A stretch of DNA of 64,000 nucleotides from Escherichia coli (GTDB lineage: Bacteria; Pseudomonadota; Gammaproteobacteria; Enterobacterales; Enterobacteriaceae): NCBI RefSeq assembly GCF_011045215.1, contig NZ_CP049201.1. One strand, written 5' to 3'. Of the stretch, positions 37,984 to 57,032 are shown piece after piece; the first letter of the stretch is position 1, and each line of letters begins with the position of its first letter. Below the pieces are notes generated by a model that saw nothing but the letters and a program-made list of their open reading frames with translations, made no database searches and was not told where the DNA came from. Made by a program: the position numbers and the translations under genes.

Positions 37984-38203
37984 ATTGTACCTTTTTGATT
38001 AACCATTGGGGTGAGGGAACCCAATACGTACGACACGTCTGTTACCTTAACATAATAACGTGCTTACCCTTTTTTCGAGCCGCCGCATGATACTGCTTTA
38101 CGTTGACAATGCAATGGTTAATTTTCACGCAATCGTTAACCTGGTTTGCTTACGGACTCACAGGGCGTAAACTAGCGCCGTTTTTTTATGTGATGAGAAG
38201 AAA

Positions 38204-38449
38204 ATGACCGATCTCTTTTCCAGCCCTGACCACACACTCGACGCACTTGGCCTGCGCTGCCCGGAACCCGTAATGATGGTGCGCAAAACAGTGCGCAATA
38301 TGCAGCCAGGTGAAACGTTGCTGATTATTGCTGACGATCCGGCGACGACCCGCGATATTCCTGGGTTTTGTACCTTTATGGAACACGAACTGGTTGCTAA
38401 AGAGACGGATGGACTGCCTTATCGTTATTTGATTCGTAAAGGCGGTTGA
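38204..38449 (+). CDS. tusA: Sulfur carrier protein TusA
   Basis: 81 aa; CPxP motif (LRCPEPV). Confidence 0.92.
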
Positions 38450-38518
38450 TGGGGGCAGATTGGCTTCGATGCCGCCTTTTCCCCTCACCCTAACCCTCTC
38501 CCCAGAGGAGCGAGGGGA

Positions 38519-38544
38519 CCGATCGCGCTCAATGTTGCGATCGG
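38519..38544. terminator. Palindromic hairpin between convergent tusA and zntA
   Basis: 8-bp inverted repeat CCGATCGC / GCGATCGG with 9-nt loop, followed by TTTG on the plus strand. Confidence 0.45.
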
Positions 38545-38550
38545 TTTGCC

Positions 38551-40749
38551 TTATCTCCTGCGCAACAATCTTAACGCATTCGCTGTCACCAGCACCGTCG
38601 CACCCGTATCTGCCAGCACCGCCAGCCATAGTCCGGTCATTCCTAACAGCGTGGTGACGAGGAAGATCCCTTTCAGCCCCAGCGCAATAGTGATGTTCTG
38701 GCGGATATTGGCGTGAGTGGCGCGTGCCAGTTCAATCATTTGCACCAGACCGCGCAGGTGGTTATGGGTTAATGCTGCGTCGGCGGTTTCCAGCGCCACG
38801 TCTGTGCCGCTGCCCATTGCAATCCCGATGGCGGCAGCTTTCATCGCTGGCGCGTCGTTAATACCGTCACCGACCATCGCCAGCGGCGCATGTTGATTCA
38901 GCTCGGTCACCGCTTTGACTTTATCTTCCGGCAACAGGCCCGCTTTAAACTCCAGCCCCAGCTCCCCGGCGATTGCCGCCGCAGCGCGTGGATTATCGCC
39001 GGTGAGGATCACTCCTTTAACCCCCAGCGCGTTCAGTTCACTGATGGCAGTTGCAGCGTCGGCGCGCAGGGTATCCTGTAACGCAATGACACCAAGCACG
39101 TCATCGTTACGTACTACCAGCACTACCGTTTGCCCGGCGCTTTCCAGTTCGTTAATTAAACCAGCAAATGCATCAGCGGGATGTTTCCCGGCAGCGCAAA
39201 TCAATACGCGCTCACCGTTAACCTGCGCTTCAATGCCAGACCCGACCAGCGCCCGCTGTGATTCGGCGGCGGGAATGGCGAGTGCAGCAACCTGTGCTTC
39301 GCGCACGATGGCCTGCGCCAGTGGATGCGTCGCGCCTTGCTCGACCGCCGCCGCCAGTGTCAGCAGTTCAGATTCACTAATACCCGTTGCCGGATGAATC
39401 GCGGTAACGCGCGGTTTACCGACGGTCAGCGTACCGGTTTTATCAAACGCCACCTGGGTAACACGACCTAGCTGCTCCAGCGCCGCACCGCCTTTAATTA
39501 ACGCCCCACGACGTGCCGCTGCTGCCAGCCCGGAGGTAATCGCCGCGGGCGTGGAGATAACTAACGCACACGGGCAGCCAATCAGCAGCAGCGTCAGGCC
39601 TTTATAAATCCACTCTTGCCAGCTGGCGGCAAACAGCAGCGGCGGCACCAGCGTTACCAGCAGGGCGACGGCCATAATCGCTGGCGTATAAATACGGCTG
39701 AAACGGTCGATAAACCGCTCAATGGGAGCGCGACGCTCTTCGGCTTCTTCGATCAGTTTCAGAATCCGGTCAATGGCGCTGGCTCCCGGTTCGGACAATA
39801 CTTCCAACGTCACCAGACGGTCTACGCTGGTGGCGCCTGCAGGAACTTTATCGCCCGTCGCACGCTCCACCGGAATGGATTCGCCGGTCAGGGCGCTTTC
39901 ATCAAAACTGGCAAAGGGTGAGAGCAGTTTACCGTCGGCAGGCAAACGCCCACCCGCCGCAACTTCAATCACATCGCCAGGGCGCAGGCTGTTAATTGCC
40001 ACCTCTTCACGCTCACCGTTACGCAGGCGCGTGGCGTTTTCTGGTTTCAGCGCCATTAACGCGCTGACGCCCTGACGCGCGCGGCTGGCGGCCCAACCTT
40101 CTAGTCGTTCACCAATCAAAAACAGCAGCAACACCATCGCAGCTTCAGCCGTTGCGCCAATAAACAGCGCACCAATAGCGGCTACGCTCATTAACGTTTC
40201 AATGGCGAAGTAACTGCCTGATTTGATCAGCCGTAATGCCTGACGAGCAATCGGGTACAGCCCAACCAGCGTGGTCGCGATAAACGCCAGTTGCCCGAAC
40301 GGATGATTGAACTGCTCCAGACCCCAGCTGATTGCCATCATCACGATTAGCGTAATCAGCGGCAGATTCTCTTTCAGGCGCGATTCTTGTTGTTCTTCGG
40401 CGGCCTGTTCATCGCGTAGGGAATAGCCCGCTTTTTGCACCGCAGATTCAACCTGGGCACGGATGTCATTGTCGGCATCCACCACCAGTTTTTCGGTGGC
40501 GAACAACACCTGCACCTGATTCACGCCTGCAAGCTGGCGCACGGCGTTTTCTACCTTGCGCGCACAGGCGGCGCAGTCCATGCCGCTGACTTTCCAGCTA
40601 TAGCGGGTGCCGGAGACGTTTTCAGAGAGCGTTGGCGTGCTGGAACATGCGCCGTCGCAGCAACAGTCGTTGGCGTTCTGTACCGTGGTTAGCGGTTTGA
40701 ACGCAGCAAATTGAGGGGCTTTCTTGCCGTGATTGTCAGGAGTCGACAT
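38551..40749 (-). CDS. zntA: Zn/Cd/Pb-exporting P1B-type ATPase
   Basis: 732 aa; N-terminal Cys-rich stretch and GMDCAAC metal-binding motif, CPC motif, DKTGT phosphorylation site. Confidence 0.92.
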   Translation of the reverse strand: MSTPDNHGKKAPQFAAFKPLTTVQNANDCCCDGACSSTPTLSENVSGTRYSWKVSGMDCAACARKVENAVRQLAGVNQVQVLFATEKLVVDADNDIRAQVESAVQKAGYSLRDEQAAEEQQESRLKENLPLITLIVMMAISWGLEQFNHPFGQLAFIATTLVGLYPIARQALRLIKSGSYFAIETLMSVAAIGALFIGATAEAAMVLLLFLIGERLEGWAASRARQGVSALMALKPENATRLRNGEREEVAINSLRPGDVIEVAAGGRLPADGKLLSPFASFDESALTGESIPVERATGDKVPAGATSVDRLVTLEVLSEPGASAIDRILKLIEEAEERRAPIERFIDRFSRIYTPAIMAVALLVTLVPPLLFAASWQEWIYKGLTLLLIGCPCALVISTPAAITSGLAAAARRGALIKGGAALEQLGRVTQVAFDKTGTLTVGKPRVTAIHPATGISESELLTLAAAVEQGATHPLAQAIVREAQVAALAIPAAESQRALVGSGIEAQVNGERVLICAAGKHPADAFAGLINELESAGQTVVLVVRNDDVLGVIALQDTLRADAATAISELNALGVKGVILTGDNPRAAAAIAGELGLEFKAGLLPEDKVKAVTELNQHAPLAMVGDGINDAPAMKAAAIGIAMGSGTDVALETADAALTHNHLRGLVQMIELARATHANIRQNITIALGLKGIFLVTTLLGMTGLWLAVLADTGATVLVTANALRLLRRR

Positions 40750-54609: not shown

Positions 54610-55356
54610 ATGCATTATGCCGTTGTCGCCATGCTTGAAATGCTTTGCTGTATCCACGCTTACCGTACCGGACAAGAGCGATATTGGTTTTTTATCATCT
54701 TCTGTTTTCCGGTGATTGGTTGCGTGGCGTATTTTGTCATGGTGATGCTGCCAGAAACGGGCGCTGACCGTCACGGGCGTACCTTTCTGATGCGCCTGCA
54801 GGACAAACTCAACCCTGAGCGCCACCTGCGCAAATTAACCGAAGAACTGGCGATTGCCGAGACGAATCAAAACCATTATGCGTTGGCTAATGAACTGGCG
54901 CGTCTGGGGCGTTATCACGAAGCTGTTCCCCATTATCAGCAGGCGTTAAGCGGGATATTCGCCCATGAAGCGGCAATGATGCTAAGCCTGGCGCAGGCAC
55001 AGTTTGCTATTCAGGAGTTCGCCGCCTGTCAGCAGACGCTGGAAGATGTGATGCGTTATAACCCTGATTTTCATTCGGCAGACGGGCATTTGTTATTTGC
55101 CAGAACGTTAGCCGCACAAGAAAAATACGCTGATGCGGAAAGCGAGTTTGAAGTATTGATTTCTTATTACCCCGGCCCGCAGGCGCGTATTTACTATGCG
55201 GAAATGTTGGCGAAAATGAGTCGGTTACGTGAAGCCAACGAGCAGTATGTTGCCGTAGTTGATACGGCTAAACGCTCAAGACCTCATTATAGAAAACACC
55301 ACCGGGAATGGATTAAGACCGCCAATGAACGGCTGAAGCAGAGTGTGGTGCAATGA
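54610..55356 (+). CDS. Hypothetical membrane-anchored TPR-like protein
   Basis: 248-aa ORF with E. coli-like codon usage; hydrophobic N-terminal ~45 aa (two likely TM helices) then helical repeat-like sequence rich in Ala/Leu/Tyr/Gln; hairpins with T-runs follow at 55366-55400 and 55486-55519. Confidence 0.6.
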   Translation: MHYAVVAMLEMLCCIHAYRTGQERYWFFIIFCFPVIGCVAYFVMVMLPETGADRHGRTFLMRLQDKLNPERHLRKLTEELAIAETNQNHYALANELARLGRYHEAVPHYQQALSGIFAHEAAMMLSLAQAQFAIQEFAACQQTLEDVMRYNPDFHSADGHLLFARTLAAQEKYADAESEFEVLISYYPGPQARIYYAEMLAKMSRLREANEQYVAVVDTAKRSRPHYRKHHREWIKTANERLKQSVVQ

Positions 55357-55519: not shown

Positions 55520-55568
55520 TGCATTCTCGGGATATCCGTGCCCCATCTCCCATTTTCCCTCACCCACG

Positions 55569-55715: not shown

Positions 55716-57032
55716 ATGAAACCGTTACATTATACAGCTTCAGCACTGGCGCTCGGACTGGCGTTAATGGGGAATGCACAGGCAGTGACGACCATTCCGT
55801 TCTGGCATTCTATGGAAGGGGAACTGGGTAAAGAGGTGGATTCTCTGGCCCAACGTTTTAACGCCGAAAACCCGGATTACAAAATTGTACCGACCTATAA
55901 AGGCAACTACGAACAGAATTTAAGCGCGGGGATTGCCGCATTTCGTACCGGCAACGCGCCGGCTATTTTGCAGGTTTATGAAGTTGGCACCGCCACCATG
56001 ATGGCGTCTAAGGCCATTAAACCGGTATATGACGTGTTTAAAGAGGCGGGGATTCAATTCGATGAGTCGCAGTTTGTGCCGACGGTTTCCGGTTACTACT
56101 CCGACAGCAAAACGGGCCACTTACTCTCCCAGCCATTCAACAGCTCGACCCCCGTTCTCTATTACAACAAAGACGCCTTCAAGAAAGCAGGATTAGACCC
56201 GGAACAGCCGCCGAAAACCTGGCAGGATCTGGCGGACTATTCTGCAAAACTGAAAGCCTCCGGTATGAAGTGCGGCTACGCCAGCGGCTGGCAGGGCTGG
56301 ATCCAACTGGAAAACTTTAGCGCCTGGAACGGTCTGCCGTTTGCCAGCAAAAACAACGGCTTTGACGGCACGGATGCGGTGCTGGAGTTCAACAAGCCGG
56401 AGCAGGTGAAACACATCGCCATGCTCGAAGAGATGAACAAGAAGGGCGATTTCAGCTACGTCGGGCGTAAGGATGAATCCACCGAGAAGTTCTATAACGG
56501 TGATTGCGCGATGACCACCGCCTCTTCCGGTTCTCTCGCTAATATTCGTGAGTACGCCAAATTTAACTATGGCGTAGGCATGATGCCTTACGACGCCGAT
56601 GCGAAAGATGCACCGCAAAACGCCATTATCGGCGGGGCCAGCCTGTGGGTGATGCAGGGCAAAGATAAAGAAACGTATACCGGCGTGGCGAAGTTCCTCG
56701 ACTTCCTCGCGAAGCCAGAAAACGCTGCCGAGTGGCATCAGAAAACCGGTTATCTGCCAATCACCAAAGCAGCGTATGACCTGACCCGTGAGCAGGGCTT
56801 TTATGAGAAAAACCCAGGGGCGGATACCGCGACGCGTCAGATGCTGAATAAGCCGCCGTTGCCGTTCACCAAAGGGCTGCGTCTGGGCAACATGCCGCAG
56901 ATCCGCGTGATTGTGGATGAAGAGCTGGAGAGCGTGTGGACCGGTAAGAAGACACCACAGCAGGCACTGGATACCGCCGTTGAGCGTGGAAATCAGTTGC
57001 TGCGCCGCTTTGAGAAATCGACGAAGTCTTAA
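55716..57032 (+). CDS. ugpB: Periplasmic sn-glycerol-3-phosphate-binding protein
   Basis: 438-aa ORF with signal peptide ([23 protein letters not shown]). Confidence 0.92.

Follow-up and report, generated by a model that had tools for sequence, protein, structure and literature searches.

The intergenic repeat BoxC was first described beside envM (now fabI) in Bergler et al. 1992 (cited in PMC4666352), and the survey of Bachellier et al. 1999 assigned to it a length of 56 bp and about 32 copies, the published counts ranging from 22 to 32. Holder et al. 2015 listed 23 'TM_ECO' motifs of MG1655 in their Table 1 and identified this motif with both the BoxC described in 1992 by Bergler et al. and Hoyne & Maher's PIT element (PMC4666352). 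In Kaplan et al. 2016, the motif HPG1, with the consensus dGGGAGAGGGTTAGGGTGAGGG, was reported to switch between a G-quadruplex and a hairpin in a K+-dependent manner, as followed by CD (PMC5100583). A triplex was observed by CD and NMR for the consensus oligonucleotide and was not seen for the duplex form (PMC4666352), and DMS footprinting in vivo yielded no support for a stable triplex. The sequences surrounding the TM_ECO loci were more variable among 56 strains, and the motif was reported in more than 260 genomes. As related in PMC4666352, the PIT elements showed neither promoter nor terminator activity in the reporter tests of Hoyne & Maher 2002, RNA polymerase was reported to be unaffected, and an earlier study found no in vivo effect on replication. 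After three decades BoxC is without an accepted function, and the published proposals (triplex, G-quadruplex switch, source of instability) are all placed at the DNA level.

The window studied here, a stretch of 64,000 nucleotides, comes from Escherichia coli and contains the convergent genes tusA and zntA, with 101 nt between the stop of tusA (38449) and the stop of zntA (38551). The tract lying between them is already known, since the repeat has been described since 1992 and is catalogued at the exact tusA-zntA site under four names. Row 16 of the TM_ECO table (CCCTCGCCCCTCTGGGGAGAGGGTTAGGGTGAGGGG, 3,608,684-3,608,719, type 'A mm') is the K-12 orthologue, with zntA 33 nt and tusA 31 nt away (PMC4666352), and the zntA/tusA site is also HPG1 #40 (zntA>>> 48 nt, <<<tusA 32 nt; PMC5100583). 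The preliminary description of this DNA, made from its letters alone, had proposed 'a small repetitive element', and the presence of a BoxC/PIT/TM_ECO copy at a locus listed in two published catalogues confirms that proposal. The features of the locus are the following.

38204..38449, + strand: tusA coding sequence, 81 aa (ORF list; annotation in matching E. coli records).
38461..38480, + strand: weak 4-bp hairpin (38461-64/38471-74) then CCTTTT, directly after the tusA stop (gap fold).
38476..38537, - strand: unit assigned to BoxC, type A, with the G-rich strand in the zntA sense: 5' flank CAACATTGAGCGCGATCGGT, 36-nt core and 3' flank AAAAG (nhmmer).
38481..38516, - strand: 36-nt triplex-motif core CCCTCGCTCC-TCT-GGGGAGAGGG-TTA-GGGTGAGGGG (Holder et al. 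2015 Table 1 row 16; sequence parsing).
38481..38503, - strand: canonical G-quadruplex motif GGGGAGAGGGTTAGGGTGAGGGG, four G3+ tracts with 3-nt loops (regex scan).
38518..38545, no strand assigned: perfect 9-bp hairpin with a 10-nt loop, arms 38518-38526 and 38537-38545.
38546..38556, + strand: U-rich tail TTGCCTTATCT after the hairpin, overlapping the last zntA codons; candidate weak intrinsic terminator of tusA (sequence).
38551..40749, - strand: zntA coding sequence, 732 aa, P-type Zn/Cd/Pb ATPase (ORF list; RefSeq annotation of matching records).

The C/T-rich tract, the purine-rich stretch and the perfect 8-bp hairpin first noted in the gap are all present, close to where they had been placed. 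The pyrimidine tract TTTTCCCCTCACCCTAACCCTCTCCCC extends over 38477-38503 and contains 24 pyrimidines in 27 positions, being C/T-rich and not strictly polypyrimidine, and the purine tract AGAGGAGCGAGGGGA follows at 38504-38518. The arms of the hairpin, CCGATCGC (38519-38526) and GCGATCGG (38537-38544), form 8 bp and reach 9 bp when A38518-T38545 is included. The folding of the entire gap gave -45.0 and -46.7 kcal/mol on the two strands, which is more stable than shuffled sequences on both (z about -3), and the 9-bp hairpin alone gave -18.1 kcal/mol as RNA (z = -3.95) and -10.5 as DNA (z = -3.93). A longer imperfect structure built from the C-rich and G-rich parts had also been suggested, and the pairing of the C tract with the purine tract indeed folds as RNA, at -17.5 kcal/mol on the + strand and -24.4 on the - strand (z = -2.3 and -2.6). 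For the 22-mer CCCTCACCCTAACCCTCTCCCC, shuffling the window gives 0 expected matches, also when 3 mismatches are tolerated, and this shuffle control, together with the copy number, led us to reject a chance low-complexity sequence.

The check by BLAST that had been proposed gave a clear answer: the gap was matched in 5,425 of 5,426 complete E. coli genomes, at a median of 17 places per genome (range 1-32), and is therefore a dispersed repeat. A nhmmer profile built from 14 non-orthologous type-A copies of K-12 gave one match in the window (61.9 bits, E=1.6e-18), with 62 nt aligned from 38537 to 38476 on the - strand and an envelope of 38464-38539. The interval 38476-38521 is identical at 45 of 46 positions to the copy beside fabI/envM, and this common 46-nt core is delimited by that copy together with a plasmid match. 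Thus 38476-38537 is almost certainly one BoxC copy of type A. Neither the shuffle-controlled motif search nor the profile search found a second copy in the 64-kb window. The K-12 orthologue differs at 2 of 99 nt across the gap. The RefSeq annotation of K-12 carries no feature in the gap; the 50-kb K-12 listing is likewise devoid of repeat features, so that this absence has little weight.

To the BoxC family as described, the window copy shows nothing essentially different: it belongs to the same sequence family and is extragenic, GC-rich and an imperfect palindrome, the strain of the window having one additional C>T in the C block relative to K-12. All the 18 K-12 loci that were fetched and aligned, which hold 23 copies, are intergenic, and the alignment gives for the G-rich strand of the type-A unit (A)AAAnGnGCnCGnaCGG-TCCCCTCGCCCC-TYTG-GGGAGAGGG-TTA-GGGTGAGGGG-AACAG, with a conservation that continues 5' beyond the published 36-nt core for about 20 nt. 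This extended conservation bears on the status of the hairpin, treated in the preliminary description as a feature distinct from the repeat. The claim does not hold for the 5' arm, which lies within the conserved BoxC flank as delimited by the profile, and it does hold for the 3' arm, which is locus-specific and gives way to other sequence where a BIME has been inserted; the '8-bp hairpin' forms locally, from conserved BoxC flank on one side and 9 nt of unique sequence on the other. Thirteen K-12 copies carry the same G x A mismatch (PMC4666352), which suggests that the copies derive from a master sequence, and not that a perfect stem was selected for. As BoxC is an imperfect palindrome in which the C block can pair with either of the two G blocks, a stable stem-loop is expected in the 3' UTR of both the tusA and zntA mRNAs. 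Two further observations were made on the K-12 alignment. Five loci (L125, L130, L131, L132, L135) pair a type-A BoxC with a type-B one, inverted relative to each other and separated by about 60-90 nt; the large composite palindrome that results has been reported before. The type-B copies possess a conserved 5' flank of their own, TTTTCTCCCTCTCCC.

With the PIT/TM_ECO elements (Hoyne & Maher 2000, 2002; PMC4666352) the window copy shares the three 10-nt blocks (block 1 at 38507-38516, block 2 at 38494-38503 and block 3 at 38481-38490), the 3-nt loops TCT and TTA and the G x A mismatch. The first is a pyrimidine block, the second its purine complement and the third a purine block mirror-symmetric to the second, with loops inside the allowed 1-6 nt; in a direct reading of the sequence with block 3 antiparallel to block 2, every third-strand contact is G·G, A·A or T·A. 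The single difference between the window core and the K-12 TM_ECO #16 is one C>T in block 1, the C block, which adds a T.G pair to the duplex part, predicts a weaker triplex and corresponds to the 'TM_ECO mutated' class. Against the ITxF limit of one mismatch, the stem irregularities are G x A in K-12 and this same mismatch plus the T.G wobble in the window copy, which, read from its letters, may fail the strict one-mismatch rule and would pass it with a shorter stem. With regard to HPG1, the four G tracts of at least 3 nt and the loops of 1-7 nt are found at 38481-38503 on the - strand, where the window contains the identical 21-mer GGGAGAGGGTTAGGGTGAGGG and the conserved C-rich 5' flank; the G-quadruplex part is without differences, its formation in vivo being putative, and the + strand carries the matching C-rich tract. 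The regex scan found two such motifs in 64 kb. The sole other one, GGGTGAGGGAAAATGGGAGATGGGG at 55541-55565 (-), is not BoxC and lies within a 359-nt gap between ORFs ending at 55356 and starting at 55716.

Outside this strain, the tusA-zntA spacer exists as three structural alleles among the 5,426 complete E. coli genomes, as established by comparing 38450-38550 of the window with L003 450-720 and L004 450-1005. The first allele, of the window type with BoxC and the short hairpin, accounts for about 84% of the genomes. In the second (526 genomes) BoxC is present and an inserted BIME/REP pair replaces the 3' arm of the hairpin, and in the third (265 genomes) about 50 nt including most of the core are missing, with REPs and an extra 102-aa ORF in the spacer. 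The BoxC-bearing alleles examined each carry a different point change in the C block. This three-allele pattern is in line with the unusual variability claimed for TM_ECO loci in the literature. The ORF of the BoxC-less allele (L004 665-973, +) encodes a hydrophobic product annotated by RefSeq as the hypothetical protein WP_000385056.1, and the Pfam search with it found no family.

The 3' flank of tusA was also inspected at four outgroup loci reached through TusA homologues, two of which belong to fragmented long-read assemblies. At L141 (1850-1925), the tusA stop is followed by a BoxC type-B-like element in the same orientation and then by a canonical terminator with an A-tract, a hairpin and a T-tract. 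Enterobacter cancerogenus (L144 1836-1885) has a degenerate BoxC-like hairpin 3' of tusA, and REP-type units occupy this position in Klebsiella pneumoniae L143 (1747-1849) and in L142 (1830-1905). On a larger scale, a contig scan for GGGWGAGGGYYRGGGTGAGGG gave at least 120 loci (L005-L124), with four non-enteric MAGs among the matches listed, namely those labelled Archangium, Contendobacter and Afipia and 'bacterium GL140_5', in which the exact 21-nt G motif with a paired C block occurs many times. These distant occurrences, of the form C-block/G-block/YYR/GGGTGAGGG, are in keeping with the more than 260 genomes in which the motif has been reported, and 'bacterium GL140_5' shows the same G x A stem mismatch as the E. 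coli 'A mm' type (CCCTCGCCC opposite GGGAGAGGG) inside longer, near-identical flanks.

The REP units found at the tusA-zntA site in the alleles L003 and L004 and in Klebsiella L143 invite a comparison, REP/BIME elements occupying this position 3' of tusA in other alleles and genera. Like BoxC, they are small extragenic palindromic repeats located in 3' UTRs, co-transcribed and able to form stem-loops, and like some BoxC siblings they have RNA 3' ends just downstream. However, BoxC has no similarity to the REP consensus, palindromic units of the GCCGGATG...CATCCGGC type being absent from 38450-38550, and its copies are far fewer. To our knowledge, no RAYT-type transposase exists for BoxC.

The preliminary description gave a bidirectional terminator as the other reading of the gap, in which the BoxC stem-loop and the GC hairpin would together halt both converging RNA polymerases. 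Bidirectional intrinsic terminators likewise have a GC-rich hairpin midway between convergent stop codons, and the short distance between the two genes, the stable structures on both strands and the partial U-rich tail of the hairpin in the tusA direction are in agreement with this reading, as is the position of 7 of the 18 K-12 BoxC loci between convergent genes (binomial P about 0.01 if 14.5% of gene pairs are convergent, and about 0.05-0.14 at 20-25%). However, the BoxC stem-loop is followed by ACCGAUCG (+) or AAAAGGCG (-), with no U-tract directly 3' on either strand as an intrinsic terminator would have, and the sequence after the 9-bp hairpin is UUUGCCUUAUCU for a polymerase coming from tusA and CCCCUCGC for one coming from zntA, leaving an interrupted U-tract on the tusA side only, no A-tract before the hairpin on the + strand, and no U-tract after either hairpin for zntA (CCCCUCGC, AAAAGGCG). 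In contrast to the window hairpin, those of L141 and of ilvC/ppiC carry flanking tracts or mapped ends, the separate hairpin beside BoxC at ilvC/ppiC bearing the mapped 3' ends of both genes. The consensus terminator scan found no site in the gap, and the Term-seq lists of Adams et al. 2021 (PMC7815308), drawn up for three growth conditions, place no dominant 3' end within K-12 36085xx-36088xx, the absence of an end being weak evidence as they hold just 882-1,175 dominant ends per condition. A Rho termination region was reported on the tusA-sense strand at 3,607,955, ~700 nt into antisense zntA (PMC7815308), which suggests a tusA-strand read-through of the gap, an internal antisense promoter being possible instead; Rho regions of a comparable kind are found past other convergent BoxC loci (tauD, aaeR, yhfS, ilvC, ppiC). 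Since U-tracts are lacking, the scan is negative, the reporter assays of PIT elements are negative in the account given by PMC4666352 and no Term-seq 3' end is listed, the claim of a bidirectional intrinsic terminator very probably fails, and a joint arrest of both polymerases by the two structures appears quite improbable. On the + strand, the hairpin with UUUGCCUUAU is a borderline intrinsic terminator arrangement; it is plausible that this flanking hairpin ends tusA transcripts, though weakly at best and in that direction alone, and that the 9-bp hairpin is the tusA terminator is possible, if somewhat doubtful. The weak 4-bp hairpin at 38461..38480 is probably not functional, the T run after it being the start of the BoxC 3' flank, where the terminator scan calls no terminator. 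Separately, a terminator-like hairpin GGCGTAAACTAGCGCC followed by GTTTTTTTAT was noticed at 38164-38189 (+), ~15 nt upstream of the tusA start codon and within the divergent spacer common to tusA and the upstream gene, where a 5' leader structure or a chance match is possible.

The remaining explanations concern a role in RNA or in DNA structure. In the first, BoxC would act as a REP-like barrier at RNA 3' ends, its stem-loop stalling 3'-5' exonucleases or pausing the polymerase and stabilising the tusA and/or zntA ends. The stability of the two stem-loops (-17.5 and -24.4 kcal/mol) is consistent with such a role, and so are the 3' ends found at sibling copies when the Term-seq table (Adams et al. 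2021 supplement, PMC7815308) was searched for the BoxC sequence. Five dominant ends of K-12 (164636+, 3781065+, 4231270-, 632098+, 624567-) lie 13-21 nt 3' of a C-strand BoxC hairpin, the chance expectation being 0.2, or 0.7-2 with a 3-10-fold intergenic enrichment, and a further end, 3959467(-), falls directly after block 3 of a G-strand copy; the end 624680(-) is at the 5' edge of another copy, and the sibling loci associated with Term-seq ends are L125, L130, L135 and L137. This association was not found in the published BoxC or Term-seq literature consulted for this question. It suggests an ability of BoxC stem-loops, in RNA, to set 3' ends or to shield them, as REP elements do. The tusA-zntA copy itself, however, has no listed Term-seq end, the read counts are low for several of the ends at sibling copies, a tusA end set by BoxC would be masked by the second hairpin downstream, and Adams et al. 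2021 make no mention of BoxC, so that we hold a barrier at this locus to be rather unlikely. In another explanation, the G strand would fold transiently, while being replicated or transcribed, into an intrastrand triplex or a G-quadruplex and cause local genome instability or variation. The published triplex with the higher variability of TM_ECO loci, the K+-dependent switch (PMC5100583), the three structural alleles and the three different C-block point changes are in line with it. Yet the duplex gives no triplex signal, the DMS footprinting gives no support to a stable triplex in vivo, the earlier replication study, as PMC4666352 relates it, saw no in vivo effect, REP biology alone can explain the BIME insertion here and about 84% of the genomes keep the same simple allele; such an effect is thus unlikely. 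A small RNA gene resembling Hrs13 of Erwinia was also considered on account of a weak Rfam match (RF02631, 38468-38551, +, 19.7 bits, E=0.0078-0.039). No Rfam family reached its gathering threshold in the gap, the best being Hrs13 (19.7 vs 52 bits) and ylbH (14 vs 50), the alignment rests on two generic hairpins and a U tail, no 3' end is mapped in the gap and the promoter scan found no promoter-like site in the 1-kb region around it. The Hrs13 identity was rejected as sub-threshold and generic, and a small RNA gene of this kind is extremely improbable.

Taken as a whole, the locus is very probably best explained as a BoxC copy that is selfish or near-neutral and not itself a terminator. Under this explanation BoxC would be a non-autonomous element persisting between a stop codon and the end of the transcript, where the harm it does is small. 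The tusA transcripts would cross BoxC and be partly halted at the flanking hairpin with its U-rich tail, the remaining ones being ended by Rho inside antisense zntA, and the zntA transcripts would meet two stable hairpins without a U-tract, causing at most a pause of RNA polymerase or a protection of the 3' end from exonucleases. The absence of the core in 265 of 5,426 genomes and the adjoining BIME in 526 support the dispensability of the element. On the other side, two other genera have BoxC-like elements immediately 3' of tusA, a hint that the element is retained and not purely neutral, and the five sibling copies with RNA 3' ends past the hairpin count against the explanation as a whole, an RNA 3'-end role being possible.

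The tusA-zntA locus itself is of low importance, as it holds a catalogued repeat for which the idea of a bidirectional terminator fails. For the BoxC family, the RNA 3' ends at the sibling copies, together with the recurring order of stop codon, BoxC and separate terminator hairpin, offer a cheap and testable alternative at the RNA level to the proposals made so far. That BoxC, including the copy in the tusA/zntA 3' UTR, is an RNA-level module defining or protecting 3' ends is a tentative idea to which we give a small probability. If true, it would explain the persistence of BoxC between stop codons and terminators, and it would also explain the presence of a BoxC-like element directly 3' of tusA in other enterobacterial genera.
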